IMG/VR virus record: IMGVR_UViG_3300048597_000631
Coordinates: 1-56,900 of that record
DNA from: a virus
Taxonomy: Duplodnaviria; Caudoviricetes
Length of the DNA stretch: 56,900 nt
Strand: one strand, 5' to 3'
Shown: in pieces, positions 11,559-33,646 of the stretch
Layout of the letters: every line of letters starts with the position of its first letter
How positions within the stretch are numbered: position 1 is the stretch's first letter
Program-made: the position numbers and the translations under genes
The notes under the pieces: generated by a model
Database searches by the model: none
Seen by the model: the letters and a program-made list of their open reading frames with translations, nothing else
What the model was told of the DNA's origin: nothing

Positions 11559-11636
11559 AAAAAGCAAAGCGGCGGCATTTCCACGGAAATGCCGCCGCTG
11601 GTCTGCTGGCTGACGTTTGTTGTTCCCTCGATTATA
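11559..11636 (-). promoter_or_regulatory. Repeated late leader, copy A (TATAAT, conserved leader, GC hairpin, U-tract)
   Basis: -10-like TATAAT at 11636-11631; 15-bp arms 11568-11582/11585-11599; TTGCTTTTT tail about 20 nt before the tape measure ATG. Confidence 0.75.
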
Positions 11637-11675
11637 TCGCCGCGCCGGCGACGCAATGTGGGTCAGCACATTGCA

Positions 11676-11939
11676 TCACCAAATTCCGTCAGCGGGAATC
11701 TTGACGCGCTTGATGGGCCCGCGCGCCAGCGTGCGAACATCGCCCATGGGCCGGCCCCTGTCTTTGCCTTTGCCGCTATGCCTGTCCTGGTCATCCAGAT
11801 CGTGCGCAATCGTCAGCACCGACAGGTCGAACTGATACGCCGCGGCGCGGTTGCGTATGCCGACCATCGCGCTGGGGCGCTGGCCATACGAAGAGGCGAG
11901 CACATGAAGCGCGCGCACCTCTACTCGGTTTCTAAAAAA
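11676..11939 (-). CDS. Tail assembly chaperone, -1 frameshift extension (gpGT-like)
   Basis: Lies in the -1 frame of the upstream chaperone, entered at slippery T-TTT-TTA (11939-11933). Confidence 0.75.
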   Translation of the reverse strand, partial: FFRNRVEVRALHVLASSYGQRPSAMVGIRNRAAAYQFDLSVLTIAHDLDDQDRHSGKGKDRGRPMGDVRTLARGPIKRVKIPADGIW

Positions 11940-12403
11940 GCGAGCATTTGGTGCGGCAACAGTCCACCGCGGACGGATGTGATTTCGGTATAGATCTGAA
12001 TCAGATCGTCGATGCTGAGCTCGGTGATGGAGACGGCGCTGTCGTCATCGTCGCGCACGTCGCCCTCCACGATACGCGGCTCAATCACGCCAATGCGCAC
12101 CGCAGCACGGATGACATCAAGGTGCTTGCGCACCGCGTCAATCACCGGCACGTCCGAAGCCACCAGCTTTTCAGCGTCGGCCTGCAAAGGCTTCGGCATC
12201 TCGCCGCTGATGACCATCTCGACGAGCGACAGCCGGCGCACGCGCACCGCCAGGCCCGACTGCGTCGTTCGCCACGCGCCGGCGTGCCGGCGCTTGCGCC
12301 ATTTCGCGGCGTTTGCCGCCGGTGGTTGCACTGGCGATTGCGCCGGCGCGGTGGCCGCGCTGTTTGCGGCCACCGCGGGTTGTTCGTTGTGTTGCTCGCT
12401 CAT
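11921..12403 (-). CDS. Tail assembly chaperone (gpG-like)
   Basis: Between major tail and tape measure genes; ends GCT TTT TTA GAA ACC GAG TAG. Confidence 0.8.
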   Translation of the reverse strand: MSEQHNEQPAVAANSAATAPAQSPVQPPAANAAKWRKRRHAGAWRTTQSGLAVRVRRLSLVEMVISGEMPKPLQADAEKLVASDVPVIDAVRKHLDVIRAAVRIGVIEPRIVEGDVRDDDDSAVSITELSIDDLIQIYTEITSVRGGLLPHQMLAFLETE

Positions 12404-12414
12404 GTAAAGTCAGA

Positions 12415-12936
12415 CTAAGTCGCCGGCAGCGCAGCCGTCGTCTCGTTCTCCACGACTTGAAGATAACCACTGCCGTCACCCAGGTCCAGCGAGATGCCCT
12501 TGCACTTGGTCACCACAAATTCGCCGTCCTTGAAGCTGCCTTCAAGCCCGTCCGCGTCGAGTTTGCAGTTCACCATCTTCACGTGCGTGTCATCGCCGCT
12601 TGGCCCCATCGCCTTGCCGTAAATTTTGAAATACGGCATCACATCGCCTGCCTTGAACGTGCCGGTGGTGACGCGGTTGGGCGTCGTGCCGGTCGTCGTC
12701 ATGGTGCGCCCCGTCATCACAGCATAGCCGTCCAGCGGGATGCCGCCGGCGCTCAACTCCCACTCGACGCTGTCGCCGAACGCGACCGACGCCTTGATCG
12801 AGTCGTTGCCGCGCAGCCGCCCGCCCACCATGTTCTCCTTGAATTTCAGTTCAATCGCGGCGTCCAGCGACACCACCGTCGCGCCCTTGACCAGCTTGAT
12901 TTCGCGCAGGCCGAAGGGCTTGTCTCCATATGGCAT
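12415..12936 (-). CDS. Major tail (tube) protein
   Basis: 173 aa, 'PFGLREIK...PYFKIYGK' siphovirus tube-like sequence; canonical position. Confidence 0.78.
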   Translation of the reverse strand: MPYGDKPFGLREIKLVKGATVVSLDAAIELKFKENMVGGRLRGNDSIKASVAFGDSVEWELSAGGIPLDGYAVMTGRTMTTTGTTPNRVTTGTFKAGDVMPYFKIYGKAMGPSGDDTHVKMVNCKLDADGLEGSFKDGEFVVTKCKGISLDLGDGSGYLQVVENETTAALPAT

Positions 12937-13254
12937 TTAGGCCTCCCGGGCCATCTCGGCCCACTTCATCACGGTGTCATGCGGCGCGCCTGTTGAGCGC
13001 GAAACACGATCCACCCCTTCTTCATCCAACGCAGCCAGGTCGGCCACGGTGAACACCGAACAAAACAACGCCAGCGCGGACGCGTGGTCGCCGGCGATTT
13101 TTGCCAGCGGATCCTCAGCCGCGACGATAAACCGCTCGTCGGGCTGAGACAGCAGCTCGCCGGCCACACCGCTATCGACCTCGGCCACGCTGCCGTCCTG
13201 CCAGGTTGCGTCGAACGCAACACGCTGCCCCACCCCGTTCCACTGAATCAACAT
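12937..13254 (-). CDS. Hypothetical protein with C-terminal helix-hairpin-helix-like segment
   Basis: 'VFTVADLAALD...VMKWAEMA' pattern. Confidence 0.5.
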   Translation of the reverse strand: MLIQWNGVGQRVAFDATWQDGSVAEVDSGVAGELLSQPDERFIVAAEDPLAKIAGDHASALALFCSVFTVADLAALDEEGVDRVSRSTGAPHDTVMKWAEMAREA

Positions 13255-13272
13255 TTATTTGCCAGCCTCCTG

Positions 13273-13683
13273 TTATCCCCTTAATCGCATCACCTGATAC
13301 CGGCTGAGCGACATCGATGCCGCCAGCGTATCGTCGCTCTGGTCGAGCACATCGTCGGCGTGCATCACCTCCCATGCCTGTGTGCCGGGAAGAATCGCCC
13401 TGTTCAGCAGCGCGTAGCACCGCTCGCGCGCAGCGTCGATCTTGTCGTAGCCGGCTCGCTGATAGAAATACAGGACGAAGATCAACCCGCCAGCGGTTGC
13501 ATATACCTCCTGCTGCGCCTCGTTCTCGAAGCGCAGGAGCGCGCAGGGCAGCAGCTCGCGGTTGGCGTCATACGCCGCCGGCGTGGTGGCGCGGCTGATC
13601 AACGTCGCCGTATGAACGCCGCCTGCAAGCAACGCCATCAGTGCGCCGTCCGAAGCGAGCCGGCTCAGGATGGCATTCCTCAT
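13273..13683 (-). CDS. Tail terminator / completion protein
   Basis: 'MRNAILSRLASDGALMALL' start overlaps the upstream stop, GGAGG SD; precedes the tube gene. Confidence 0.65.
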   Translation of the reverse strand: MRNAILSRLASDGALMALLAGGVHTATLISRATTPAAYDANRELLPCALLRFENEAQQEVYATAGGLIFVLYFYQRAGYDKIDAARERCYALLNRAILPGTQAWEVMHADDVLDQSDDTLAASMSLSRYQVMRLRG

Positions 13684-14936
13684 GACGCCACCTCCATAGG
13701 CACGGACTCCATGCGGCTGTCGTGCGCTGCGCGGTCGCCCATCAGCCAGGCCAGAAGCGTTTGCAGGATCGCGCTCGCCACAATGCCTCCCATGATGCCG
13801 GTGGCCACACCGGCGCCGGATGCGACATCTTGCGAGATCGTGCGCGTGCGCAGGTTCATCGCCGGCGACAGTTGCGCGCCAAACGTTTGCGCGTAGCCAT
13901 CCATCTCCGGCCAAGACCGCTCACCGCGCATCCAGCCGCGCAACTGGCCGACGAAATCGTCCGCCGGCATCTCGACTGCGACGAGATAACACAGGCAGTT
14001 GGGATGGATCGGCAGCGACAGCATGCCGACCGGATAGATGCCCTTTCCGTCTCGCCCCCTGGCGATGATCTCATCGCACACATCCTCTTCGGGATGCGCC
14101 GGCGAGAGCCGCATCTGCTCCTCGGCCACCCACGGCATTTGCTTCATGAGTGTCTGCGTTGCCAGGTTGTGGATGCGTTGAATCTCTGTGCGCGCCAGCC
14201 GCAGCGCGTTGTAGGCCACGCCCTGTGACGCGCATTCATCGCCTCGGATCAGGCCGCGCGGATCGCCGGCGGCAATGTCGCGTTTGGTCAGCCGGTAAAG
14301 CCGAGTCGATGTCCAGCGTGGGCAGTTTGCGTTCGCGCCGAGGTATTTCTCCAGTTCCTTCGCAATGTCCCAGGCACTCTTGCCCCCCTGAGCGCCGGCG
14401 AACAGCACGGCCTGGATGCCGGCGCGGCTTTGCTGATCGAGCCTCCACAACCGTCCGCTCAGCGTCAACCCATCGGCGTAGACCGCGCGATTCGCAGCCT
14501 TCATGATGGCGTCCAATTGCGGCTTGAACAGGTAATCATCTGGCGCGGCGGCTTCATCCAGCCGTCGCACGCGGATCACCCGCCGGTGCTCGCCTGCGCC
14601 TTGCATGGCCTCCTGCACGGCGCGCCGGCCCAGCGTGCCGATGTAGTGCGCGTGCAACTCTGCCAGCGTGCCAAACGGCATGGACGCGGCTTCACGCTGC
14701 GCCGCCGTGATCAGCGCACGGACCGCATCGAATGACTCTTTCCAGATGCGCTCGAGCGCAACGCGCGCGCCCATCAAGCCCGCCGGCGTCAGCCTGCCGT
14801 CCTGCTGGTGCACGGCCGTGACGGCCTCGCGCATCGCACTGGCGGCGGCGGCGAGCGTCTCGTGAACGCGCATTTGCACATATAGCTGCAATCGCATCAC
14901 CGCCTGGTATTGGCGCTGCCATTCACGCGCGCTCAT
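13680..14936 (-). CDS. Head morphogenesis protein (SPP1 gp7 / Mu gpF-like)
   Basis: 'RLARTE...C..HPNCLC' motif; follows the portal. Confidence 0.8.
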   Translation of the reverse strand: MSAREWQRQYQAVMRLQLYVQMRVHETLAAAASAMREAVTAVHQQDGRLTPAGLMGARVALERIWKESFDAVRALITAAQREAASMPFGTLAELHAHYIGTLGRRAVQEAMQGAGEHRRVIRVRRLDEAAAPDDYLFKPQLDAIMKAANRAVYADGLTLSGRLWRLDQQSRAGIQAVLFAGAQGGKSAWDIAKELEKYLGANANCPRWTSTRLYRLTKRDIAAGDPRGLIRGDECASQGVAYNALRLARTEIQRIHNLATQTLMKQMPWVAEEQMRLSPAHPEEDVCDEIIARGRDGKGIYPVGMLSLPIHPNCLCYLVAVEMPADDFVGQLRGWMRGERSWPEMDGYAQTFGAQLSPAMNLRTRTISQDVASGAGVATGIMGGIVASAILQTLLAWLMGDRAAHDSRMESVPMEVAS

Positions 14937-16264
14937 GCATCCCCTCCATCATCGTCGTCGTCACTGGGCATGGCGCCGGCGGCCATGTCGGCTGCATTCG
15001 GCTCGCCCTGCGGCACGGCCGGCTGCAGGTCTTCGAAGCCGGGGATAAAGCGCGCAAGCGTCGCAAACACCACATCGTCACCCAGGCCGAGCGCGCGCAG
15101 GTTGAGCGCGGCATCCGTCGCTGCCTTGAGGTCGCCGGCGGTCAGCGTGCCTTTGTTTTTCCAGACCACGTCATAGTCGAGCGATTCCGGCAGGATCCCC
15201 TTCAAGAGCCACTGCAGGTGCAGCAACGGCTTGACGATTTCGTCTTCCAGCCATTGCGTGATCTGCTCCAGCTCACGGTCATATTGCTCTTTCTGCTCGT
15301 CGAGCACGTCACGGTTCAGATCCTGCCCGTAGCCCAGCAGGCCGAGCGCGATCGGCGACGCCAGCGAAAACGTGCGCACGTGGTGCATCACATCGTCGAA
15401 CTGGTGCAGGTTCGCATCGCCCTGCATGGCCGTGACGCCGCCCTCGGTGTTGGTGTAGAAATCCGCGACGCCGGCGGCGGGGTCTTCGAGCGCCTCACGG
15501 TTGCGCTCCTTGTAGGCCTCAATGGCGGTCTCGTCGGCGCCCTTGAGCACGTGCACGCGGCTCATGCCGGCACGCGCCCAGCGCCGCGTGGCCATGTTGT
15601 CCTCGCCGGTGTTCATGCGTTTATAGGACTTCGCGCCGACGCTGAACATCGGCTCGCCGTAGCGGCTGCCTTCGTCATGCTCCCATCGCGCATGGATGAT
15701 CTGCCACTGCGCAAACCACACTGCGTCGTCCGGCGGCTCCTGGCTGGCGTAGAACTCGTCGCTTTGCCAGAACGCGCGCGCGGGATCGGGAAACATGTCA
15801 CGCTCGTCGGTGTTGCGATGCATCTGAAGCGTCGGCATGCGCTTCACCAGCGCCACGTCGCCGGCGCGATCCACGCCGATCTGCAAAAATGTGTCGCCGT
15901 CTCGAAACGTGAGCCGCGCCCAGTCATCAAGGCGGCTGGGCAGCATGAGCCGCTTGATCAGGTCGGTGGCGATCTGCTCCGCCGTGGGGTTGTTCTTGAC
16001 CTTCACCGCCGGCCCGCCCTTGACCGCGTCGCGACCTGTGGCGCGCGTGGCCTTGCGCACGCGCGTGTCGGCGCGATACATGGCCCGGCTCTCTTTGATC
16101 TGGTTGAGGCGATCCTGCGAAGACGAGAACGCAACGACAGCGCGTCCGGTCGTGCTGCGCGGGCGCGGCATTTCGGCAAGCGTCGTCGCCGCCGGCGTGG
16201 GCTCAATGGCCGGGGCGCCACGCCGAAGGCGAAGGGTGCGCAGAACGTTGTCCAGGATACCCAT
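14933..16264 (-). CDS. Portal protein (T4 gp20-like)
   Basis: 'IIHAR...YGEPMF...KRMNTGEDNMATRRWARAGMSRVH' fits the gp20-family pattern; 443 aa. Confidence 0.78.
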   Translation of the reverse strand: MGILDNVLRTLRLRRGAPAIEPTPAATTLAEMPRPRSTTGRAVVAFSSSQDRLNQIKESRAMYRADTRVRKATRATGRDAVKGGPAVKVKNNPTAEQIATDLIKRLMLPSRLDDWARLTFRDGDTFLQIGVDRAGDVALVKRMPTLQMHRNTDERDMFPDPARAFWQSDEFYASQEPPDDAVWFAQWQIIHARWEHDEGSRYGEPMFSVGAKSYKRMNTGEDNMATRRWARAGMSRVHVLKGADETAIEAYKERNREALEDPAAGVADFYTNTEGGVTAMQGDANLHQFDDVMHHVRTFSLASPIALGLLGYGQDLNRDVLDEQKEQYDRELEQITQWLEDEIVKPLLHLQWLLKGILPESLDYDVVWKNKGTLTAGDLKAATDAALNLRALGLGDDVVFATLARFIPGFEDLQPAVPQGEPNAADMAAGAMPSDDDDDGGDA

Positions 16265-16289
16265 GTGAAATCAATACGGTCAGTGATGG

Positions 16290-16981: not shown

Positions 16982-16984
16982 GGT

Positions 16985-18268: not shown

Positions 18269-18316
18269 ATTCGATGCGATACAAGCAATGGATGCAGGCA
18301 ACAGATGCAGGATGTG

Positions 18317-18348: not shown

Positions 18349-18368
18349 ATCAAAACTTCAAACTTTCG

Positions 18369-21128
18369 TTAGGTGACGGCGACGAACGAACCTTTGCCAG
18401 CCACCGGAGACTCCATCGCGTTGTATTCCTCGATGTACCACTGCGTGGCCGCGATCAGCTTAGCGGTTGCCTGGTCATACTTCGGGAATGGACCTTGCAG
18501 CGACAAAGGCTTGTAGACGCGGAAAGCGACCAGCTCGCGGTTGACCACCATCATGATGTTGTCCGACAGTGCTGTGCTCGGCGCGGCGTAGATCGGCAGG
18601 CCCTTGAGCGTGCGGAAGAAGCCGTTGCTCTGCGCCTCGGCGTCGGGCCGGCTGCCGCTCTCCGTGAAGCCGCTCCAATTCGCGAGCAGGTCGGCGTTCG
18701 CCACCGACACAACGATGGACGTGGGCGAATAGTTGCGGTTGAGCACCTTCACCTTGGCCTTGCCCAGCTTCAGAATGGCATCGGCATAGTCCGGCGATCC
18801 CGCGCTGCCGTTCCATGTGCCGCCGCTGTTGTTCGCCACCGTGCGCAGCGTCGCGGCGGCCATGCTGAAGATGTCCTGGTCGACCTTGCGTGTCTGCTCG
18901 GTGATCAGGTTGCCCAGCGTGCGCTGCACCACGTCATAGTTCAGCTGCGAGCGCGAGAATTCGACCGCCTCGTTCGTGATGTCGATGCTCATGCGGTCGG
19001 CCTTCGCCGTGATGGTCACGTTCGACAGCGTGGTCTTGGCGCGCTCGATCGGCGCGTTCTCGCCTTTGCGAATCGCCTCATACACGTAGTCGATCAAGAG
19101 CGACTGACCGGCGGTGATCGCGCCGCCGGTGGGCACGAAGATGCGGCCGTTGCCATAGTCCACGAAGTAATCCGTGTTCTCGACATAGGTCGTCGAGCCG
19201 GCGCTATTGGTCAGCACCACCGTGCCCTGCTTCACGCGCTGGTTGGCGAGCGATCTCCATTGCGCCAGCGGGTTAGGCGCCGTGACGGCTTCATCCGTGA
19301 TCGTCACCGACATGCCCGATTCTTCGGTGTAGGTCTCGAAATACAGCAGGTCAGGCGAATTCTGCATCGGTGCCACATCGAAGATGCTCGTGGCCACCAA
19401 CTGCGGCCACACGGCCGCCACCACTGCGCGCGAGACGCTGTAGGGCAGCGACAGGTCGGTGCTGAGCTGCGCTTCGTTGAAACGCTGCGCCTCGGCGGCG
19501 AGCTTGTCCTTGAACTGCTCGTCGAAGCGCTTCAGGATTTGCGCCGCGACGATCTGGTTGCGGTTCTTCGGCTTGGCCTCGTTCCAGATCGGCGCGTATT
19601 CCCGCGCGCGCAGACCTTCGAGCAGCTCGTGCGACACGCGGCCATACTCCGGCACGCCGGCGTCGCGCTCGAGCACAGTGCCCAGCACCTGGACGCCGGC
19701 GGCGCCGCCTGCAGCAGACATGCCCATGCCGGCAAGTCGCGCGCTGGCCACCATCGCGTCGTAGCGCTTCTGCAAACGCTCGAAGGCGGCCTGCACGCCG
19801 GCGGCATCCGTCACCGCCTCGGCCAGCTCGTCGGCGAATTGCTTGTTCAGCGATTCACCATACGGCAGCTTCTCGCACGCCTTCTTCACAGCTTCGGCGA
19901 TGGCGGCCTTGCGCGCCTGCTCGTCGAGCGTGCGCTTGGCATCCATCGCCTCAGCGATGGTTTTGAACACGTCGGCGTTCGGCGCGAGGTTCAGCTTCTC
20001 GCGCAGCAAGCCCTCGATCTGTTTGGCCTGCGCCTCGGTCAGCTTGTCGAGCGCCTCGATCCCCAATGCGGCCTTCACCTGCGCCGCCAGTTCGGGATTT
20101 TGCTGGAGCATCTCCAGCAGCTTCTTCGGGTCCATGTTGTCCTCCTGATCAAATTCGTTTTTGTCGTTCTTGCTTTCGAGAACGGTGTGGTTGAGGAAGC
20201 CGGGCGTCATCACCAGGTCATAGCCGGTGAAGTGCAGCTCGGTCACCTCCTCGATCTCTCCATCGTTCTCGGTCAACGTTCGCGCGAAGCCATAGCCTCG
20301 CAGGCTGCCGCCGGGCATGACGCCGAACTCCATCAGGGTGAGTGCGTCCTTGCCTTTGCTGGTCGGGATGACGGTGCCAATGAAATCCACCGCGCCCGTG
20401 CCCTCGTCAAACGTGACTTCCGTCCAGTTGACGATGGTTTCCAGATAAAGGGGACGCTGCCCTTTGTCGCTCGGATGATCTGCCTCGCCGACCAATTGGT
20501 CGCCGTCCTTCGTGAGAAGAATGGCACGCCCCTGGCCCGCGCTCTCGTGCAAATGCTGTCTGATCTCGGTCACCGCACCGCGCACCACCTCGCGCGGGTA
20601 GCGTCGGCGGTTGCGGTTCACCGCGTCGGCCATCACCGCCTCGCGCACGCGGATGCGCCGGCCTTCGCCTTGCGCCGTCTTCACGGCCTCGCCCAGGTCG
20701 GCCTTGATCACATCGACCTGCTCGGTGAAGCGCGCTTTGCGCCCCTTGGCCCGTTCCGTCACAACGGTGGGCGCCGGCGTCGTTTGCGGAATCTTGGCCG
20801 GCGCAGCGGGCTGATAGGCCAGCTCGACGACTTCCCACTGATCCTGCGCATCGAACGCGAACTCAATGCCGGCGCCGGTCTCGGCAACCGAGTAGCCCAC
20901 GCGGTAATACTCGCCATCCTGAAGCGCGCTGCCGATGCTTTCGCTGGTGCGCGTGTATACAGAAACGATCAGGTGATCGGAGAAGATCTCGCGCACCACG
21001 TAGATCGGGCCGCGCTCAGCATCGGGGAACGCGCTGTAGAACGCGTTGCGCAGGCGCTGGAGATAGTCATCCAGCGACCCTTTCACTTCTGTGATCGCCT
21101 GGCCGCGGTTGAGTTTGCGTTTGCTCAT
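18369..21128 (-). CDS. Prohead protease-scaffold-major capsid polyprotein (T4 gp21/gp22/gp23-like)
   Basis: Protease motifs 'NRNRRRYP','GEADHP','TSKGK','SLRGYG'; helical middle region; gp23-like 'VWPQLVATSIFDVAPM'; no internal stop over 919 aa. Confidence 0.85.
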   Translation of the reverse strand: MSKRKLNRGQAITEVKGSLDDYLQRLRNAFYSAFPDAERGPIYVVREIFSDHLIVSVYTRTSESIGSALQDGEYYRVGYSVAETGAGIEFAFDAQDQWEVVELAYQPAAPAKIPQTTPAPTVVTERAKGRKARFTEQVDVIKADLGEAVKTAQGEGRRIRVREAVMADAVNRNRRRYPREVVRGAVTEIRQHLHESAGQGRAILLTKDGDQLVGEADHPSDKGQRPLYLETIVNWTEVTFDEGTGAVDFIGTVIPTSKGKDALTLMEFGVMPGGSLRGYGFARTLTENDGEIEEVTELHFTGYDLVMTPGFLNHTVLESKNDKNEFDQEDNMDPKKLLEMLQQNPELAAQVKAALGIEALDKLTEAQAKQIEGLLREKLNLAPNADVFKTIAEAMDAKRTLDEQARKAAIAEAVKKACEKLPYGESLNKQFADELAEAVTDAAGVQAAFERLQKRYDAMVASARLAGMGMSAAGGAAGVQVLGTVLERDAGVPEYGRVSHELLEGLRAREYAPIWNEAKPKNRNQIVAAQILKRFDEQFKDKLAAEAQRFNEAQLSTDLSLPYSVSRAVVAAVWPQLVATSIFDVAPMQNSPDLLYFETYTEESGMSVTITDEAVTAPNPLAQWRSLANQRVKQGTVVLTNSAGSTTYVENTDYFVDYGNGRIFVPTGGAITAGQSLLIDYVYEAIRKGENAPIERAKTTLSNVTITAKADRMSIDITNEAVEFSRSQLNYDVVQRTLGNLITEQTRKVDQDIFSMAAATLRTVANNSGGTWNGSAGSPDYADAILKLGKAKVKVLNRNYSPTSIVVSVANADLLANWSGFTESGSRPDAEAQSNGFFRTLKGLPIYAAPSTALSDNIMMVVNRELVAFRVYKPLSLQGPFPKYDQATAKLIAATQWYIEEYNAMESPVAGKGSFVAVT

Positions 21129-21150: not shown

Positions 21151-21241
21151 GAAAAGCAAAGCGGCGGCATTTCAAATGAAATGCCGCCGCTGGTCTGCTG
21201 GCCGGTATATGCCCCCTGCGGGGTTGATGTCTTGAATTCTA
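21151..21241 (-). promoter_or_regulatory. Repeated late leader, copy B
   Basis: TAGAAT at 21241-21236; same CCAGCAGACC-AGCGGCGGCATTTC...GAAATGCCGCCGCT-TTGCTTTTC element about 23 nt before the capsid ATG. Confidence 0.75.
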
Positions 21242-21272: not shown

Positions 21273-22817
21273 TCACCCGAATGGGCTGCGCCGCACCGTC
21301 GCCGGGGCCGTGCTTGTTTGCTCCGCCGGCGCAAAGACAAGATTCGACAACACGACCGCGTCGCCCTTGTCCGGCGAGCGTCCGATGCGCTTGATGATCT
21401 CCTCCTTGCTTTCAACCTGGATGCCGTTTGTCTTGAGCGACCATCTGGGCGCGCACAGATCGCTTTTGAGCTCAGGATCGTCGGGCAGCGCGATGTCCGG
21501 CACGCCGTAGTCCGGATCGAGGGCCTCGCGCATCTTCCACCACCCCTCCGCGCGCAGGTTGACAAAGCCCAGCTTCCCGCTGCGGTCGCGAGCGTCGCTG
21601 CGGCCGGCCACGTTCACGCCGACCGCGCGGCGCGTGTGCTCGCGCAGCGAGTCATACACGCTGGCGCCCACGCCGATCACGTCGACGTGGATGTCGGCGT
21701 CTGGGTGGCGGTGCTCCTTTAGCACCAGACCGGCGACGATGGGCCCGTTGGGCGTCTGGCTGCCGGGATATGTGATGACAACATCGAACCACGCGCCATA
21801 GCGCGGCGCAATGGCCGTTTTGTCGTCGCCGCCGCGCGCCACGTCCACGCCCAGCGCCGTGAGCGGCACATCTGGCCGCGGCGTCTCGCGCCAGCGTTTC
21901 TGCGCGATCTCCACCCAGCGCGTTGGGATCACTTGCCACGGGTCTTCCTTGCGGCCAGCCTTCCAATCGCCAAACATGAGTTGGCTGCGCAGCGGCTCCG
22001 GCAGGTTTTGCAGCGTCGTCATGTAATCCGTCGCCATCAGGAACGGGTTATCTGTCACCCGCGCCGGCACAAACGTGCGCGATTTCGGCTTGATCGTCAG
22101 CTCCTTGTGCGTGAAAGGTCTACCGTCCTCAACCTCTTTGTCCTTGCCATCGATGACCGCAAACCAGCGTATCTCACCGGCGACGGCCGGCTGTGGATGC
22201 TGGTCATCCAGCCACGGCGCCCAATACTCAATCACCCACTCGCCGTCGCTTGACGCCGGCGGGTTGCTGGCGCACACAACGCGGCAGCGTTGCCCAGGCA
22301 CCGTGGTGCGGTTCCATGCAATCACCGACTTGAATTGCAACCGTACAAATTCAGTCAACTCATCAAAGCCGTAATAATCCTTGGCGCGCCCACGAAACTT
22401 CTGCCAATCGGTCTCGCGTTGCATGGCGGCAAACTCCAACACGCGGCCACCCGGCGCGCCCGGCAGGCCGCGCCAGATGTTGTCGTTGGCGTTGAAGCGT
22501 CCTTTGTCTTGCACGATCTCCCTGCTTCGATCCACCATGTCTTTTAATTGCGTGTATTCACGCCTGAAAATGATCCCGCGCCGGTGCTCGTTGATGGCCA
22601 ATCCAACAAGCAGATCGGACTTGCCGCCGCCAGCGCTGCCGCCATACAACAGCTCATCCGCCTGGCTGTGATACGCCATCGTCTGCGGACCCGGCAGCGG
22701 CTTCCACAGGCGTTTGTCCATCGCCAGAAGCCGGTCCAGCTCGTCGCGTTCGCGCGGCGTCAAATAGGGCAGCAATTCGCGCAGCTCTTTGCTCGTCAGT
22801 GAGTTGGTCATCGCCAA
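21273..22817 (-). CDS. terL: Terminase large subunit
   Basis: Walker A 'GGSAGGGKS', Walker B 'GFDEL', 'ASNP', nuclease 'GVDVARGGDD' and 'SPDKGDA'. Confidence 0.93.
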   Translation of the reverse strand: MAMTNSLTSKELRELLPYLTPRERDELDRLLAMDKRLWKPLPGPQTMAYHSQADELLYGGSAGGGKSDLLVGLAINEHRRGIIFRREYTQLKDMVDRSREIVQDKGRFNANDNIWRGLPGAPGGRVLEFAAMQRETDWQKFRGRAKDYYGFDELTEFVRLQFKSVIAWNRTTVPGQRCRVVCASNPPASSDGEWVIEYWAPWLDDQHPQPAVAGEIRWFAVIDGKDKEVEDGRPFTHKELTIKPKSRTFVPARVTDNPFLMATDYMTTLQNLPEPLRSQLMFGDWKAGRKEDPWQVIPTRWVEIAQKRWRETPRPDVPLTALGVDVARGGDDKTAIAPRYGAWFDVVITYPGSQTPNGPIVAGLVLKEHRHPDADIHVDVIGVGASVYDSLREHTRRAVGVNVAGRSDARDRSGKLGFVNLRAEGWWKMREALDPDYGVPDIALPDDPELKSDLCAPRWSLKTNGIQVESKEEIIKRIGRSPDKGDAVVLSNLVFAPAEQTSTAPATVRRSPFG

Positions 22818-23301
22818 TCTCTATCGGCCCGCCGTTTTTGCCGGTGATTTCAGATTTGTCCACAAACAATCCATGTGCCCGTCCAAGTGTCACCAGTGCG
22901 CCTTGCGCGTCATACAGTTCGAACTCAGTTACCGCCTCACTTTCTCCATCTTTCAACTGCCGACGGGTGACCTTTAATTTTTTAATCAAATGCAATTGAT
23001 TAAGCGATTGCGCTTTTACAAGATCGATCGTCGCGGTTCCATCGTCATTGACCACAACAAAATCTTTCATCGAGCCCCGCGCGTGGCTGGTCAATCTCGT
23101 GACAACCTCATCAGCGCCGGCTTGCAATTCTTCCAGCCGGCGTTTGATCTCGCTCGATATTTCAGGTTTCTTCAAGTTCTCGTGCCCAATCGAACCGGCC
23201 GTCTTGGACGAGTAGCCTGCGCGCCGTGCCGCATCAGATGCATTCCAGCACTGGAGGTAGTGCTCTATAAAAGCGCGCTCCTTGTTGGTCAGCTTGCGCA
23301 T
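22654..23301 (-). CDS. terS: Terminase small subunit
   Basis: 'LTNKERAFIEHY...NASDAARRAGYS...GHENLKKP' Terminase_2-like HTH. Confidence 0.9.
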   Translation of the reverse strand: MRKLTNKERAFIEHYLQCWNASDAARRAGYSSKTAGSIGHENLKKPEISSEIKRRLEELQAGADEVVTRLTSHARGSMKDFVVVNDDGTATIDLVKAQSLNQLHLIKKLKVTRRQLKDGESEAVTEFELYDAQGALVTLGRAHGLFVDKSEITGKNGGPIEIGDDQLTDEQRAARIAALFDAARTRRAGPASGDGQTPVEAAAGSADDGVSQPGG

Positions 23302-23328: not shown

Positions 23329-23643
23329 TCATGGCTCAGTGTTGACAACGAAATACCGAATGACCTGCTCGTCCCCAATCGAGAAGCAGCACTCAACGCG
23401 GTAGAGACGCAGCGGTTGCGGCACCTGAATCAGGGGTGTGACGAATACGCCGCTTTGAATGTTTGCCGAACCTGTCAACACGCCGGACTCGGCGCTGACA
23501 TCCGCGCCGGTTGTCACATCCCACACCTTGACCGCCGGCGAGGTTGCATTGGTGCTCGCAGGAAGCTGCACCTTGTAGATGCGCTTTTCACGCACGGACT
23601 GCCGAATTGGGCTGCCGATCAATTCACGTGTATTCGTATTCAT
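23329..23643 (-). CDS. Hypothetical virion-associated beta protein
   Basis: 104 aa, coupled to the upstream repeat protein. Confidence 0.55.
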   Translation of the reverse strand: MNTNTRELIGSPIRQSVREKRIYKVQLPASTNATSPAVKVWDVTTGADVSAESGVLTGSANIQSGVFVTPLIQVPQPLRLYRVECCFSIGDEQVIRYFVVNTEP

Positions 23644-24812
23644 GACATCCTCAAGGCCGGCACCAGGGCATCCAAAGCGAGTGATACATCAACCATTTTG
23701 AATGCCTCTTCACTCGGCACGTAAAAGTCGGGCGGGAGTGGTGTCACACGGGCGGACGCGCTCAACGTTTGGTCATCCTGTGTGGCGTTGAACGTGGCAA
23801 TGATGCTGACGGCAACGATGCCAGCCAGGGTATCCCCACTGCCGGCGCCGGCCAGGATGCCAGTGATCGTGCTAACGCCAATCGCTGCAAGCCCATCACC
23901 GTCCTGAAATGCATTCAATGCGGCAGTAACATTGATGCCAGCAAATGCAACTGCAGTCTGATCCGCCTGAATGGCTCCAAGCGATCCGGCGACATCCACC
24001 GTCGCAACACCGACCAGCCCCTGTGAATCCTGCGTGGTTTCCAGGACGGCTATCGCGCCGCTGATTAAAACGGCTGTAGCAAGGAGGGTGTGCGCATCCT
24101 GCACCACGCTCAACGCGCCGGCAACATCCACAATCGCCGCAGCGGCAAGCGTCTGATCGCTATGCGTCACATTCAATGACGCACTCACAGCCACCGCCCC
24201 AGCGGCGCTCAGGCTGCCATCGTCCTGCGTCGCGATCAACGCAGCCGATACCATCATGCTGCCGGAACCGTTCAGGCTGTCATCGGCCTCCGTGACGCTC
24301 AGACCACCAGCAACCCCGACCGACACAATTGCGTTCAGCGTGTCATCGGCTGGTGTGCTACTCAGCAATGCAGCGACTGCAACTGTCGCACTTGCGTTCA
24401 GTGCCTGGTCATCCTGCGTCGCATCCAGCGTCGCCGTCACACCAGAGCTGACTATCGCTGTTGCACTGAGTGTGTCATCTGCCTGCGTCGCGATCAGTGC
24501 AGCGGAGACAAGCAACAAGCCGGCAGCATCCAGACTGTTGTCAGCCTGCGCCGCATTTAGCGTGCCGGCGACGCCCACCGTTGCCGATGCGGCAAGCGAT
24601 TGATCATCCTGCGTGCTGCTGAGTGCGCCATTGACGGCCACCGACACCGAAGCGCTGAGTGTGTTGTCACCAACAGCAGACGACAGCACGCCGGCCACGT
24701 CCACCGTCCCAGTGGCGGCCAGCGCGTGATCAGCCTGCGTCGTGTTGAGCGTGGCGTTGACGCCACCCCCCGCCGGCGCGAGCAGGTTATTCAGCAGCAG
24801 CGTGAGCAGCAT
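23640..24812 (-). CDS. 21-aa tandem repeat (beta-solenoid/fibre-like) protein
   Basis: About 16 repeats of V-x-[AG]-x-L-x-x-T-Q-x-D-x-x-L-x-A. Confidence 0.75.
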   Translation of the reverse strand: MLLTLLLNNLLAPAGGGVNATLNTTQADHALAATGTVDVAGVLSSAVGDNTLSASVSVAVNGALSSTQDDQSLAASATVGVAGTLNAAQADNSLDAAGLLLVSAALIATQADDTLSATAIVSSGVTATLDATQDDQALNASATVAVAALLSSTPADDTLNAIVSVGVAGGLSVTEADDSLNGSGSMMVSAALIATQDDGSLSAAGAVAVSASLNVTHSDQTLAAAAIVDVAGALSVVQDAHTLLATAVLISGAIAVLETTQDSQGLVGVATVDVAGSLGAIQADQTAVAFAGINVTAALNAFQDGDGLAAIGVSTITGILAGAGSGDTLAGIVAVSIIATFNATQDDQTLSASARVTPLPPDFYVPSEEAFKMVDVSLALDALVPALRMS

Positions 24813-29043: not shown

Positions 29044-29072
29044 GTCTCTCCTTTGAAGATCACTTGTGAAGA

Positions 29073-29654
29073 TCACTTGAATACGCCTGGCCGCCGGTGC
29101 TTGATCGCGTCGATCAAGTCGCGCATGCGGTCCGTGTTGCGCATGTGCTGCACAAGGTGCATCGCGCGCGTCGGCGCACTGTCGCCGGCCAGCGAATCCC
29201 ACTTCACGCCGAGCTCGTAGGCCAGCGTTTGCAGTTCCTCCATGTCGAACCGATCCATCAACACATCCAGCACCTGGCCATCCGCCTGCACCGTGCTGGG
29301 CTGGTGGGCCAGCGCCGGCGAGTTGCGGACGTAGAAATCCATCACGAAGTCAAGTCGCGCCTGCATTCGCTTTTCAGCGTCTCTCGCGCGCGCCTCGGCC
29401 TGGATTGCGCGCTCCTCCGCCTCCTTCACCCGCTGCGTGTTCTCGGCGCGGATGGCGTTGATCTGCCGGGTGTGCTGTGTCTGGAGCCACGCGCCATAGG
29501 CCAGAAACGCTATGGCCTGCGAGCCGAACAGGAGCATGGCCTCCGGCACGGTCAAGATGAACGTGGCCGGGTCGGCCAGCTGCGTATAGAGGGCTGCAGG
29601 CGCGGCAGCCGCGCGCAATGAGGACGTGGCCAGAATGAGGAGGGGCATGAACAT
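29073..29654 (-). CDS. Membrane-anchored coiled-coil protein with C-terminal EAD7-like domain
   Basis: Hydrophobic N-terminus, coiled coil, then 'FDMEELQTLAYELGVKWDSLAG...AMHLV...RP'. Confidence 0.65.
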   Translation of the reverse strand: MFMPLLILATSSLRAAAAPAALYTQLADPATFILTVPEAMLLFGSQAIAFLAYGAWLQTQHTRQINAIRAENTQRVKEAEERAIQAEARARDAEKRMQARLDFVMDFYVRNSPALAHQPSTVQADGQVLDVLMDRFDMEELQTLAYELGVKWDSLAGDSAPTRAMHLVQHMRNTDRMRDLIDAIKHRRPGVFK

Positions 29655-29656
29655 GA

Positions 29657-29851
29657 TCAGGGACGTGGGATATACATTGCGCCAGCGTCGTCCGAGTCCC
29701 ACCAGCAGCTGCGCGCCACGATGCCGCGATACACCTCGACCGTCTGCGCCTCGCACTGCGCGCGCAGATGATGGAGCGTCAGGCAAAACACCAGCACGAT
29801 CATCAGGGTGAGCAGCACGCACGCGACGACGTAGTTCCACAAGTTCCTCAT
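29657..29851 (-). CDS. Small membrane protein
   Basis: One TM helix; 64 aa. Confidence 0.5.
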   Translation of the reverse strand: MRNLWNYVVACVLLTLMIVLVFCLTLHHLRAQCEAQTVEVYRGIVARSCWWDSDDAGAMYIPRP

Positions 29852-29878
29852 TGCGCAGACGCCGGCAGGCCGGCGCAG

Positions 29879-30289
29879 TCAAAATAGCTTGCCGCCCGCC
29901 GGCGATTCATTCAGCGTGACGGGCAGCCCGATCTCGCGCAACCGCTGGTCGTCACGCTGCGCATCGCGCAGCCGGCGCGCCGCGAGAAACACGCCGTCGG
30001 TCGACGCCAGGCTCAGCACCGCAGCGATCACCACGCCCAGCACGTAGTCGCCAATCGACTGCACATTGCACGCTGGCGCGCCCGTCACCACGCCGACGCA
30101 GCCGCCGGCGATGAACAGCGCGGCCAGCGCCAGCACAATGACGCCGCGCACAGACCGCTGCGCATCGGCGCCAAGCGCCTCAAAGCGCGCGCGGGTCTGC
30201 GGGATCAGCAGCGCAATCACCGTGAGGGTCACGCTGGTGGCCAACGTCAGGCCGGCTGCCGTGGTCAGGTCGAAAGTCGTGTTGGTCAA
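29879..30289 (-). CDS. Holin-like three-TM membrane protein
   Basis: Three hydrophobic helices and a charged C-terminus; AAGGAG SD before TTG. Confidence 0.55.
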   Translation of the reverse strand: MTNTTFDLTTAAGLTLATSVTLTVIALLIPQTRARFEALGADAQRSVRGVIVLALAALFIAGGCVGVVTGAPACNVQSIGDYVLGVVIAAVLSLASTDGVFLAARRLRDAQRDDQRLREIGLPVTLNESPAGGKLF

Positions 30290-30527
30290 GGGTTGTCTCC
30301 TTTGGCGCCGGCGCATCCTGTGACATGTTCTGTGGAGCGTCCTGCTCCAGGATGCGCAGCGGCTCCAATATCGTTGCGCGGCAGATTGCCTTTCGCCGGC
30401 CCGCGGCGGTCATGCCGGCGCACATCGCTACAAGTGCGATGTCCATCTCGTGATATGCGACCTGTTGGTCGCCCTGCTCGCGCTGCTCGATGAGCAGGGT
30501 TGCGCGAATAACGTGATAAGTCTTCAT
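30180..30527 (-). CDS. Hypothetical protein, paralog of 30849-31049
   Basis: First 52 aa near-identical to the upstream ORF. Confidence 0.5.
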   Translation of the reverse strand: MKTYHVIRATLLIEQREQGDQQVAYHEMDIALVAMCAGMTAAGRRKAICRATILEPLRILEQDAPQNMSQDAPAPKETTLDQHDFRPDHGSRPDVGHQRDPHGDCAADPADPRAL

Positions 30528-30538
30528 GCTTGCGAGTG

Positions 30539-30623
30539 GAAAAGCAGAAGCGGCGGCAACCTATCGTTGGATAGATTGCCGCCGCATGAATGCTGAACCG
30601 GCTATTGAATTGAATGAATTATA
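30539..30623 (-). promoter_or_regulatory. Repeated late leader, diverged copy D
   Basis: TATAAT at 30623-30618; GCGGCGGCAA...TTGCCGCCGC stem with a different upper stem and a U-G pair on the minus strand; U-tract. Confidence 0.65.
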
Positions 30624-30627
30624 TGCC

Positions 30628-30852
30628 TTATTCCGCCTCACTCATAAAGCGTCTGCTATCGAGATCATCGATCAACATCGTGGGCGCATCAGCGCGACGG
30701 TGTCGACGCACACGACACCATTCATACTGCACAAATATGCCTGCGCGCTCAAATGCACGCAGACCGCGCAGCAAGTTACGCACGAGTTCGCGCTCCTCAG
30801 GCGTTTGAGGTGTCAGGTCGGCGTCGGGCCTTCGAGAAGATTCTCTGGTCAT
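30628..30852 (-). CDS. Hypothetical protein
   Basis: ATGA-coupled to 30849-31049. Confidence 0.45.
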   Translation of the reverse strand: MTRESSRRPDADLTPQTPEERELVRNLLRGLRAFERAGIFVQYEWCRVRRHRRADAPTMLIDDLDSRRFMSEAE

Positions 30853-31049
30853 GTGGTGCATGTCGGCGCCGGCGCAGCGGACCCGAACCGCATCGTTGCG
30901 CGGCAGATTGCCTTTCGCCGGCCCGCGGCGGCCATGCCGGCGCACATCGCTTCAAGAGCGATGTCCATCTCGTGATGTGCGACCTGTTGGTCGCCCTGCT
31001 CGCGCTGCTCGATGAGCAAGGTTGCGCGGATGACGTAGTAGGTCTTCAT
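30849..31049 (-). CDS. Hypothetical protein, first gene of the late operon
   Basis: 66 aa, directly behind leader copy C. Confidence 0.55.
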   Translation of the reverse strand: MKTYYVIRATLLIEQREQGDQQVAHHEMDIALEAMCAGMAAAGRRKAICRATMRFGSAAPAPTCTT

Positions 31050-31059
31050 GTCTACGGGC

Positions 31060-31137
31060 GGAAAAGCAAAGCGGCGGCATTTCCGTGGAAATGCCGCCGC
31101 TGGTCTGCTGGCCGGTGATTTAGTTGAGGTGATTATA
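31060..31137 (-). promoter_or_regulatory. Repeated late leader, copy C (probable main late promoter)
   Basis: TATAAT at 31137-31132; element identical to copy B except in the apical bases. Confidence 0.75.
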
Positions 31138-31212
31138 TGCCCGTTTCGGCATCGTCACACCTTGAATGCATTGCACCGGCTGACCAAATCCCAAGATGGT
31201 TGTGCACAGGTA

Positions 31213-31241
31213 TTGACAAACCAAAGCGCTTGGGTTATCAT
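31213..31241 (+). promoter_or_regulatory. Sigma70 promoter of the + strand moron
   Basis: TTGACA-N17-TATCAT with a near-palindromic spacer. Confidence 0.7.
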
Positions 31242-31266
31242 CTGCACAACTCAAGGAGCAAACGCG

Positions 31267-32055
31267 ATGGCAAAGTTCACCAAAAACTACGGCAGCAACT
31301 GGGCGCTCGAATTGACCCCGGACGAACACAGAGCCGTGCAGTCCGGCAACACCGCTGTCACGGTTTACATGGCTGACGGCAGCAAAAAGACGATGACCGT
31401 GACGCGACACAAAGGCGGGCGCGAGCATGCCGGCAAGCAATATCATGGCTACGAGTTCATCGCCGACGAAAGGAAGCCCGTGCAGCAGGCCAAACCCACC
31501 CCGCAACCCCGCAAGGAAGCGCCAGTCATCCCCGCCAATGCTCAGAGCATTCAGCGCCGCTCCGCCGGCAAGGCCGACGGCTACGAGGTCGGCGCAATCA
31601 TGCGGCTGGGCAACGTCGCCGGCGGCGGCGGCCCCGATGGTCATTACTTCCGCGTGATCAGCGCCAGCAAGTATCGCGATGACGATTACGACGAGTGGTA
31701 TGCGACCGCCTATGTGGTGCCGGCGACCGATGCCGAAGCCGCGCCTGTGGCCGAGCGCATCGCGCGCAAGGCGGCCGCGAAGGCTGAAGCCGAAGCCTTG
31801 ATGCGCGCACTCGGCGCATCGAAGTCGGCCAGCATGCATCTTGACCAGGAGCCTGCCGGCGCGATGGTGACGCTGTGGGAAGATCGCCGCGCCGCCGGCA
31901 GCGAGGCATGGATCGCCATTGGTCAGCAGGTCTACTACACCCAGTCGAGCTACGATGACGGCCCCCGCTGGTGGGCCACAAGCGCGACCATTGAGCAGGT
32001 TGAGCAGGCAAAAGCCACCGGACTGATCCGCCCGAATCTGCTGTGGAGCAAATAA
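31267..32055 (+). CDS. Hypothetical protein
   Basis: AAGGAG SD, ATG at 31267. Confidence 0.7.
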   Translation: MAKFTKNYGSNWALELTPDEHRAVQSGNTAVTVYMADGSKKTMTVTRHKGGREHAGKQYHGYEFIADERKPVQQAKPTPQPRKEAPVIPANAQSIQRRSAGKADGYEVGAIMRLGNVAGGGGPDGHYFRVISASKYRDDDYDEWYATAYVVPATDAEAAPVAERIARKAAAKAEAEALMRALGASKSASMHLDQEPAGAMVTLWEDRRAAGSEAWIAIGQQVYYTQSSYDDGPRWWATSATIEQVEQAKATGLIRPNLLWSK

Positions 32056-32057
32056 TC

Positions 32058-32825
32058 ATGCAGGCAAGCGAACTCATCAACCGCCACCATCGCGTCATCC
32101 TCGCACGGCGCACTTATCGCCGCAATGGCGCATCCATGCTCGAAGCGACCAGCGCTGTCGCCGACGAGGGCAAACTGCTCGGCATCGAGCGCAACGAGAC
32201 GTGCATCGACCCCAAACACTGCCAGGTGCGCGTCAATGGCGAATGGATGGACTACGACGCAGAGCGCCCACCGGCAAACGCAGACCAGCGATGGGACGAG
32301 GGCGACCAAAGCTACGACCTGGTCACACGGTGGGTGCATGACCCGCTGGACGATGCGGCCTTCGCAGCTGAGACCGCGCGGCTGCTGGCCCTCCCCACGC
32401 ACACGCTGGAGGTGTGGCTCACGCCGATCCAGCGCGGGCGGGTGTCGCTCGCCGGCTCGCGCGACCGCTGGATCTATGCGACCGGCATGGGCGGGTATCT
32501 TGAGAATGCGCGCAGCGCATACGGCACCGCCGGCGAAGCCGAGGCCGCCGCCCGCGCACACCTGGAATCGCTGCGCGACGAGATCGCGCAGGGCATCCGA
32601 GCGATCTTTGCGCCGGTCGCTGATGTCACGATCCAGATGCCGCCCATCGGCATCGAGATCGTCGGCGATGCATCTCTCGTCTTCCCACAGCCACCACGAC
32701 GCGCCGAACGTCGCGCAATGGCTGCGGCGCTGGGTGCAGCTGGCGGCGGCAGCACCAGCGACGCCAAAGCCGCCGCGGCGCGCGCCAATGGTCGCAAGGG
32801 CGGCCGGCCACGGAAGCAGCCATGA
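32058..32825 (+). CDS. Hypothetical protein with C-terminal 'ANGRKGGRP' basic motif
   Basis: GGAG SD; AT-hook-like tail. Confidence 0.7.
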   Translation: MQASELINRHHRVILARRTYRRNGASMLEATSAVADEGKLLGIERNETCIDPKHCQVRVNGEWMDYDAERPPANADQRWDEGDQSYDLVTRWVHDPLDDAAFAAETARLLALPTHTLEVWLTPIQRGRVSLAGSRDRWIYATGMGGYLENARSAYGTAGEAEAAARAHLESLRDEIAQGIRAIFAPVADVTIQMPPIGIEIVGDASLVFPQPPRRAERRAMAAALGAAGGGSTSDAKAAAARANGRKGGRPRKQP

Positions 32826-33295
32826 GCGAAAAAACCGCGCCCGTCGGCACCTGCGACCATTGCGGCGGCTCCATCCACCCCGACGAGTGGTATACCCGGC
32901 GCGGCCCGCGCCGCTATTGTTGCCGGGACTGCAAAAACACAGCCAACAGCCGCGCCGGCGCGCCGATCCGCAGCGACAAAGGCAAGCAGCGCGTGGCCTT
33001 AGGCACTTGGACAAACCCGCGCGACGTGATGACGCAGGAGCAGATCAGCGCGGTACAATCGCAAGCCTCACGCAAGGCCCGGCTGCGCGAGGTGCGTGAA
33101 GGTCGCTGGCGCAACCCAGCGCTTGACGATGCCGCGCGAGAGAAGCTAAGCCGGCCCCGCAAGCATGTTGGCATCATCCATCGCGTGCTGGAGAAGCTGC
33201 GACTCGGCAGCGTGCGCGATCTCACCGACGAGGAGCGAGAAGCACACAACGCATACCGGCGTGATCTAGCCCAAAAGAAACGCGGCACTCAATGA
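32822..33295 (+). CDS. Zinc-finger DNA-binding protein
   Basis: CxxC...YCxxxC motif followed by basic helices. Confidence 0.65.
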   Translation: MSEKTAPVGTCDHCGGSIHPDEWYTRRGPRRYCCRDCKNTANSRAGAPIRSDKGKQRVALGTWTNPRDVMTQEQISAVQSQASRKARLREVREGRWRNPALDDAAREKLSRPRKHVGIIHRVLEKLRLGSVRDLTDEEREAHNAYRRDLAQKKRGTQ

Positions 33296-33316
33296 GTGCC
33301 GCGTTGTTTTCTTTTT
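33281..33316 (+). terminator. Intrinsic terminator
   Basis: CGCGGCACTCA-A-TGAGTGCCGCG followed by TTGTTTTCTTTTT. Confidence 0.75.
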
Positions 33317-33338
33317 CGTCCCCTGCCCTCATCTGCCC

Positions 33339-33602
33339 TCACCTGCCCCGCTCGTCATCCGGCACAAATGCGCCTGGGTCAAACTCATAGCGATAGGTCT
33401 TGTCACTACCGCGTGGCTTGAGTCTCACAGCGATCCACGCGCGTGTAAAGTCCACTGTGACTGCACGCCGCAAGCCGCGCAATTCCCGAATAGCGCGTTG
33501 CAGGTTGAGCACCAGCCCGTGCTCGACCGCGTCGGCGACGGTCACCGTTTGTGGGTATTGCATCGGCTGCGTGGGTTGCTGCGTATTTTGCGGGGAATTC
33601 AT
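33339..33602 (-). CDS. Hypothetical protein
   Basis: ATG directly behind hairpin copy E. Confidence 0.55.
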   Translation of the reverse strand: MNSPQNTQQPTQPMQYPQTVTVADAVEHGLVLNLQRAIRELRGLRRAVTVDFTRAWIAVRLKPRGSDKTYRYEFDPGAFVPDDERGR

Positions 33603-33614
33603 TGTTGCTAGTCC

Positions 33615-33646
33615 GCCGCCGGCATTTCCGTGGAAATGCCGGCGGC
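33615..33646. repeat. Hairpin copy E with CATTTCC-GT-GGAAATG core
   Basis: GCCGCCGGCATTTCC-GT-GGAAATGCCGGCGGC; no U-tract. Confidence 0.75.

Follow-up and report, generated by a model that had tools for sequence, protein, structure and literature searches.

Promoter-like and terminator-like cassettes repeated before late genes of a putative Chloroflexota provirus, and their possible role in read-through control

To our knowledge, late-gene control by antitermination has been described in detail almost only in lambdoid phages of enterobacteria and in a few systems of Proteobacteria. In the antiterminators of the lambda N/nut type (boxA and a boxB hairpin) and of the BglG/LicT type, a short box followed by a hairpin is located in the nascent RNA, and the cognate protein and its RNA variant change together between related phages. 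According to the literature cited in this paper, the PR' promoter is active at all times, yet terminated, and the short RNA arising from early termination acts as a regulatory RNA (PMC7547250); AlpA is a small antiterminator that bypasses the intrinsic terminators located downstream of its promoters (PMC7969949, PMC9371919); and GafZ bypasses terminators inside the gene transfer agent cluster of Caulobacter (PMC11150451). In the same sources, the elements of AlpA and GafZ lie between the -35 and the -10 (PMC7969949, PMC11150451). We hereby describe a cassette of about 80 nucleotides (nt) that resembles a promoter followed closely by a terminator and that is repeated before late genes in the IMG/VR provirus record IMGVR_UViG_3300048597_000631; the whole record, 56.9 kilobases (kb) with 61.8% guanine plus cytosine, was analyzed and is called here the window. 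From its sequence and comparison we propose that polymerase reads through promoter-proximal terminators with the help of a factor and that additional cassettes were seeded within the late operon, a reading that in our judgement has about an even chance of being correct.

Four cassettes, A to D, are present on the minus strand of the window (Table 1). Each is composed of a -10 hexamer, a spacer, a CAGCA box, a GC hairpin of 14-17 base pairs (bp) and an interrupted T-run; all are intergenic and have the same orientation as the genes. A precedes the tape measure gene and B the protease-capsid fusion gene, while C and D precede the first two genes of the late operon. A preliminary description of this DNA had reported a hairpin element at the places of A, B and C, and in fact these three are identical in the 11-nt box, the 14-bp stem and the TTGCTTTT tail, and differ in the 4-nt loop alone (repeat family D3). 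The diverged and the tail-less copies that it listed, here cassette D and hairpin E, are both real: D has the lower stem and the tail of A, B and C, with a different box and upper stem, and E, which has neither a T-run nor a -10, lies 12 nt before the ATG of the gene encoding P0001, a small orphan protein. In scans of positions 1-40000, the hairpins of A to D are the four longest-stemmed terminator-like sites of the minus strand.

The -10 box proved to be a stronger signal than had been claimed. The whole window, both strands included, contains three copies of TATAAT and one of TAGAAT, each of them the -10 box of a cassette. In three of the other records that carry cassettes (G001, G407 and L033) TATAAT occurs once each, so that together with the three copies of the window six out of six are cassette boxes; TAGAAT is found twice in G001, one copy being a cassette box, and in the 60 kb around the cassette of a fourth record, G871, which are partly unrelated DNA, the cassette box is one of four TATAAT copies. 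Considering all nine distinct cassettes, the box is never missing (TATAAT in seven, TAGAAT in two); it is the exact sigma-70 -10 consensus in 7/9 and keeps A2 and T6 in the other two. No -35 was seen on reading the sequence upstream of the boxes, as had been stated, nor was any motif common to the cassettes seen there; elsewhere in the window, four sites combine a perfect TTGACA with a -10-like hexamer 16-18 bp away.

Seven of the nine cassettes have 31-34 nt between the -10 and the hairpin, and the two B-type copies have 45 nt, despite a variable spacer sequence, in which a semi-conserved CAA-N-TAAA-N3-CCGG motif, poor as a -10-like hexamer, can be distinguished. The T-run is present in 9/9; it is interrupted by GC, and termination may therefore be partial. 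The gap between tail and ATG is 6-26 nt in all nine, the values in the window agreeing with the 12-23 nt of the preliminary description.

Homologous cassettes were found by pattern scans and by a covariance model (R1), and the nine copies are distributed among the window and four other records. With 87% capsid identity, G001 (38 kb) is a relative that carries two type-1 cassettes, at places matching B and C. L033 (L045 has the same sequence) is an unrelated HK97-type phage with a type-2 cassette between its portal and prohead protease genes. G407 is a viral record of 32.8 kb with a third hairpin variant (type 3) before a homolog of the first late gene, and G871 is a bacterial genome of 4.3 megabases with a type-2 cassette. 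A, B and C are nearly evenly spaced (9592 and 9910 nt) and the two cassettes of G001 lie 10456 nt apart, which may be due to chance or to a preferred length of transcription units.

The covariance model, with 150 of about 1418 first-look candidates scored, found one cassette in the G871 genome, inside a prophage-like region; a 96-nt cassette query had no full-length match in 401 sampled Chloroflexota genomes, and partial matches of 19-44 nt in 32 of them. In G871 and the sampled genomes, a host-wide repeat similar to repetitive extragenic palindromes or miniature inverted-repeat transposable elements, a possibility raised at the outset, is thus not supported. Rfam 15 gave no match in the window at gathering scores, and over 30480-31200 only chance-level hairpin matches (best E 0.039, with a microRNA precursor model). 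A broad hairpin pattern matched at least 118 loci in a metagenome scan, almost all generic terminators, with no cassettes among the matches listed, and 36 loci in a viral scan, again almost all generic terminators; the exact 19-mer of the box was discarded as a probe, having only two chance matches, both in coding sequence. In two comparisons BLAST matches were counted only above 60 and 70 bits.

In the 14-pair stem common to the nine cassettes, 97.6% of positions are paired, and three pairs are changed on both sides while one U-A has become U-G; in the control, where the 3' partner was slid by 1-3 columns, 35-60% of positions were paired, with almost no double changes. All the changes separate type 1 from types 2 and 3, and types 2 and 3 have different apical helices. 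The changes are few events common by descent, which support a selected hairpin and do not amount to many independent proofs. The C-G to A-T covariation formerly attributed to the stem of copy B concerns instead the outer two bases of the 4-nt loop, the compensatory changes (three pairs) lying between cassette types; the mismatch of copy D is indeed a U-G pair on the minus strand only. RNA folds have z-scores from -4.4 to -6.3.

Recognition of an unpaired CCAGCAGACC box, as originally suggested, does not agree with the comparison: across cassette types only CAGCA is conserved, and in every predicted fold the box pairs through its AGCA with UGCU, the interruption of the T-run, while further out CCGG pairs with CCGG. 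AGCA and UGCU are invariant in the seven cassettes counted; next to their helix the window has a G-U pair where the two G001 copies have A-U, and the types differ in the bulge between this helix and the main stem. Because invariant pairs prove nothing, the extended helix remains a prediction. The loop exists in many variants (CGTG, CACG, ATTT, ATAT, CAAC, AAC and TCAG). Those of A (CGTG, 11581-11584) and C (CACG, 31085-31088) are reverse complements in otherwise identical palindromes, which suggests an inversion at the DNA level by recombination between the arms.

Table 1. Cassettes, hairpins and associated genes of the window (aa, amino acids; ORF, open reading frame; CM, covariance model score)
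Feature	Position	Strand	Details
Cassette A, type 1	11559-11636	-	TATAAT 11631-11636; spacer; box; hairpin 11568-11599; T-run to 11559, 20 nt before tape measure ATG (11538); CM 77.9 bits
Cassette B, type 1	21152-21241	-	TAGAAT 21236-21241; box; hairpin 21160-21191; T-run to 21152, 23 nt before ATG of protease-capsid fusion (21128); CM 87.7 bits
Cassette C, type 1	31062-31137	-	TATAAT 31132-31137; hairpin 31070-31101; T-run to 31062, 12 nt before ATG at 31049; CM 82.7 bits
Cassette D, type 2	30540-30623	-	TATAAT 30618-30623; box TTCAGCATTCAT; T-run to 30540, 12 nt before ATG at 30527; CM 63.3 bits
Hairpin of cassette D	30550-30585	-	16-17 bp, one U-G pair
Hairpin E	33615-33646	-	15-bp stem; central 20 nt equal to apex of C; lower stem flipped; CM 24.5 bits; repeat family D4
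P0005, small orphan protein	30628-30861	-	about 77 aa; type-2/3-associated subfamily
P0001, small orphan protein	33339-33602	-	87 aa; type-1-associated subfamily
First late gene	30180-30527	-	115 aa, unknown function; kept downstream of cassette in G001, G407, G871
Truncated duplicate of first late gene	30849-31049	-	66-codon ORF downstream of cassette C
Extra ORFs	31120-33305	-	about 2.2 kb, four unknown ORFs; separates P0001 from C; bounded by 12-bp bidirectional terminator, 33279-33305
Terminase small subunit gene	22654-23301	-	
Terminase large subunit gene	21273-22817	-	stop 31 nt upstream of cassette B -10 box
Prohead protease + immunoglobulin-like domain + major capsid fusion gene	18369-21128	-	
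Tape measure protein gene	9346-11538	-	PHROG tape measure families, best E 1.1e-11

In four lineages, namely the window (cassette D), G001, G407 and G871, a small orphan gene immediately precedes the first late cassette. Its stop codon precedes the -10 hexamer by 0-22 nt in all of them, and in the window the TAA of the P0005 gene abuts GGCATATAAT of cassette D. Homologs of P0005 occupy this position in G407 (P0006) and in G871; in G001 it is taken by P0002 (84 aa), which is 72% identical to P0001 (57/79). The P0001 and P0005 groups are related to each other (hhalign probability 90%, E 1.5e-6, 58 columns) and have a core composed of a helix and then a beta hairpin with an Arg-rich turn. Moreover, the subfamily of the small protein varies in step with the type of cassette: type 1 is accompanied by P0001 and P0002, type 2 by P0005 and the G871 protein (43/62 identical), and type 3 by P0006 (34/59 identical to P0005). 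By its position, the small gene is a candidate for the missing late factor.

Both families are small. The P0001 family has three real members among 1.84 billion representatives, and among viral contigs it is found in G001 only; the P0005 family has 20 members in a word-indexed search, and is present elsewhere in G407 only among viral contigs and in G871 among genomes. In a class sample it was detected in one of 401 genomes, in the order of G871 in one of 50, and in the order of G006 there were two marginal matches in 151 genomes. A search of the Atlas with the small protein gave no usable match.

From how the cassettes are built and conserved, from the compensatory changes of the stem and from the linkage to the small gene we infer promoter activity, termination, read-through and a role of the small protein as follows. 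Each cassette would be the start of a late transcription unit that is closed by default. The host-type -10 box without a -35, weak or constitutive, would start a short RNA of about 65-75 nt, and a strong intrinsic terminator would end it with only 6-26 nt remaining to the next start codon. Since this gap leaves no room for a further promoter, the genes behind the cassettes would be transcribed only by polymerase that reads through; and since capsid and tape measure are essential, polymerase would have to pass the hairpins in lytic growth. A phage factor would make either the polymerase or the nascent RNA resistant to termination, and the best candidate would be the small Arg-rich orphan protein (P0001 and P0005 families), encoded, as is Q, upstream of the promoter that it would serve. 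The extra cassettes before head and tail genes would offer more entry points to the modified polymerase, stop the unmodified one in the lysogen, and add starts before genes needed in bulk.

The closest parallel is the lambda Q-pR'-tR' arrangement, in which the order small gene, promoter, terminator, first late genes, terminase, head and tail is the same. As at pR'/tR', an apparent intrinsic terminator follows the promoter-like box by tens of nt with the late operon behind it, and as with Q, a gene of regulator size is directly upstream, a likeness of position only. The short RNA is predicted here as a by-product, and the promoter would plausibly be active but terminated in the lysogen, as in the cited account of lambda (PMC7547250). 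The differences are that the candidate has 70-87 aa and no Pfam match, hence none to the Q families of that database, that the cassette is repeated inside the operon (capsid, tape measure) and moves between unrelated phages, and that the host is probably a member of Chloroflexota. Of the lambda-like interpretation advanced previously, sequence statistics and comparison support the succession of promoter, short leader and terminator as well as the analogy itself; the unpaired-box recognition and the proposed regulators are not supported. The observation that no Q homolog is recognizable stands.

AlpA, too, is a small protein and has more than one target promoter, with an intrinsic terminator behind each (PMC7969949, PMC9371919); unlike here, its binding element is between the -10 and the -35 (PMC7969949), and the small proteins of the window have no sequence similarity to it in Pfam scans, nor was a helix-turn-helix (HTH) predicted in their models. 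GafZ is comparable because its terminators lie inside a phage-like structural gene cluster and need a bypass factor (PMC11150451), but its element is described between the -10 and -35 of a single cluster promoter (PMC11150451), while here there is one -10 box per terminator. With N/nut and BglG/LicT the cassettes have in common the order of box and hairpin and the joint change of protein and hairpin variants, but here the hairpin is the terminator itself and its loop is free to vary.

Several points weigh against factor-dependent read-through. The conserved sequence of the cassette is downstream of the -10, unlike the sites of Q, AlpA and GafZ, which in the cited sources are between -35 and -10; as a consequence, recognition, should there be any, may work in another way and could take place on the RNA. 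No alternative antiterminator fold is predicted. The linkage to the small gene rests on four loci; in the window 2.2 kb separate P0001 from cassette C, a segment that has no counterpart at the same place in G001 and may be a moron-type insertion, and no small gene was found in the 15 kb examined of L033 despite its cassette. The small proteins belong to no Pfam or NCBIfam family; a profile search of P0001 against PDB sequences had no match (best E about 1), nor did Foldseek with a model of the P0005 family against the PDB at E <= 0.001. Their AlphaFold models are poor (predicted local distance difference test scores of 49 and 63). Hairpin E resembles the cassettes in the window only; it is given little weight, because at its position G001 has an unrelated hairpin.

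Among other explanations, the one that survives best requires no dedicated factor: the cassettes would be internal promoters with leaky terminators, which would punctuate the late operon, shield it in the lysogen against transcription arriving from upstream and determine how many packaging transcripts are made relative to those of head and tail, and the small protein would be unrelated to them. The GC-interrupted T-run is consistent with it, as is the fact that no regulator fold is recognized in the small protein by PDB profile or Foldseek searches, and two capsid relatives (L028 and L029) also have a plain terminator hairpin before their capsid gene. On the other hand, it would be wasteful for a promoter consisting only of a -10 to fire into its own terminator if read-through were not regulated, and leaky punctuation does not explain the linkage of the small gene in four lineages nor the joint change of subfamily and cassette type; we consider it unlikely.

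The cassettes might alternatively be genes for small trans-acting RNAs of about 65-75 nt, with any regulation in cis secondary. They have their own -10, a stable terminator hairpin, a U tail and several near-identical copies, and the short PR' transcript is a precedent (PMC7547250). Such a function would not need the placement 6-26 nt before start codons, seen in nine of nine; moreover, the candidate seed is predicted to be paired, and no good complementary site was found in the window, where the plus-strand matches to the 15-mer of the box all have three mismatches. Although rather improbable as the primary function, a regulatory RNA would be compatible with factor-dependent read-through if it were a by-product, like the short PR' RNA (PMC7547250).

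The palindrome could also be read as DNA, that is, as an operator bound just downstream of the -10 by a dimer of the small protein, which would block or control late transcription as a stoperator or roadblock. A near-perfect palindrome of 28-34 bp, the inversion seen in the loops of A and C, and copy E before the P0001 gene, where an autoregulatory operator is expected, all speak for this. It leaves unexplained, however, the T-run in 9/9 cassettes; types 2 and 3 have a single imperfection, which is a U-G pair in the transcribed sense only, and the upper stems were replaced with pairing kept, which suggests selection on structure and not on half-site sequence. We regard an operator as quite improbable. 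An element for RNA processing, stability or translation, with cleavage at the AU-rich hexamer and with the hairpin as a 5' stabilizer of the message behind it or as a leader for translation without Shine-Dalgarno, is very improbable, as, despite the position of the hairpin just before start codons and the five copies of an unrelated small hairpin similarly placed in L029, capsid gene included, the hexamer follows the -10 consensus as described above, L033 has a normal GGAGG after its cassette, and many other genes of the window also have no Shine-Dalgarno.

For this last reason the Shine-Dalgarno-independent leader of the preliminary description was rejected: the cassette genes do start without one, but many other putative starts of the window do so too, and the feature is not special. 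A leader peptide was rejected as well, since only in B does the ATG of the 3' arm share the frame of the capsid gene, and in A and C it meets a stop or another frame.

The origin of the pair C and D can be read from its sequence. The ORF after C and the gene after D share about their first 52 codons and have 92% identity over 177 nt (repeat family D1), while the cassette parts differ far more than the coding parts; in addition, the arrangement of P0005 and cassette D matches that of G407 and G871. Cassette D and its small gene were thus most likely acquired by recombination with another phage, and not by slow divergence from C. Cassette B has a longer leader with a small CCCC/GGGG hairpin, and just upstream of its box it reads GGCATATA directly followed by CCGG (21207-21214), a feature common to G001; it looks like a C-type cassette in which -10 and spacer were partly deleted, and its TAGAAT, 34 nt further upstream, may be a replacement -10.

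At a larger scale the cassettes are a lineage-specific acquisition, since the terminase-capsid junction of distant relatives has none: in the related phage Rctr41k, and in 10 of the 11 further capsid relatives examined, all distant, the two genes nearly abut or are joined by coding sequence, with a Shine-Dalgarno and with neither hairpin nor cassette, and at this junction L028 and L029 have unrelated terminator hairpins. Several distant capsid relatives have their own unrelated dispersed intergenic repeats. L029 carries five small hairpins (TTTCC...GGAAA) directly before start codons, including that of the capsid gene (162, 5272, 7976, 12476, 15762); L020 a 72-nt unit of two hairpins, in five copies with compensatory changes (3663, 7555, 8366, 17853, 19126); and L024 a unit of box and terminator in two copies (1599, 4966). 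Dispersed cis elements before late genes may be a broader habit of this phage group.

A wider proposal, which we advance tentatively as possible rather than probable, is that P0001 and P0005 represent a new family of terminator-override factors of Chloroflexota phages, each variant matched to its own cassette variant, and that the cassette is a portable unit, copied within late operons and exchanged between unrelated phages, which places any gene behind it under late control. The same logic as in lambda would then operate in phages of an uncultured, probably Chloroflexota, host. The repetition of the cassette in one operon, its transfer between unrelated phages and a tiny protein family that tracks cassette variants are directly testable features. 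If true, this would be a new antiterminator family with matched cis elements, usable as orthogonal switches, and an example of regulatory cassettes as mobile modules.

The regulators nominated earlier fared less well than the small gene. No homolog of the LuxR-type protein (33902), which has an ordinary C-terminal domain of the GerE type, was found in the 38 kb of G001; nothing links the multi-HTH protein (45184) to the cassettes; and of the duplicated ORFs 30849 and 30180 one is a truncated copy. The multi-HTH protein has 462 aa and several HTH motifs, one of them of the excisionase type (44995-46383).

The minus strand, from about 35.7 kb down to 1.5 kb, is one long co-oriented gene train, in the order: a block of unknown genes, terminase small and large subunits, the protease-Ig-like-capsid fusion, head and tail genes, tape measure and large tail genes. 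The relatives of the capsid (38-46% identity) come mostly from genome bins of Anaerolineae and other Chloroflexota, and one member of the P0005 family is named by its source as Caldilinea sp.; a host belonging to Chloroflexota is plausible on this indirect evidence. A search with the tape measure protein found no viral relatives. Among sequencing runs, only two, both of DNA, contained 5% of the words of the window, and no RNA run was listed.

Other features of the window include a GHKL-type ATPase (37502-39460), a DdrB-like protein (42715-43947) and an actin-like ParM/ALP protein (46380-47363) that is 79% identical to one near the G871 cassette. A 41-nt repeat occurs five times, irregularly spaced, at 23758-24755 in an ORF of 390 aa (23640-24812; repeat family D2), and presumably encodes a repeated protein motif. 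Dense short direct repeats with units built on CTTTGAAC (repeat families D10 and D11) are found at 35039-35275, inside a long and probably spurious ORF (34506-35732); this array adjoins plus-strand promoter-like sites at 35083 and 35187 and looks like an iteron or operator array of a replication or immunity region.

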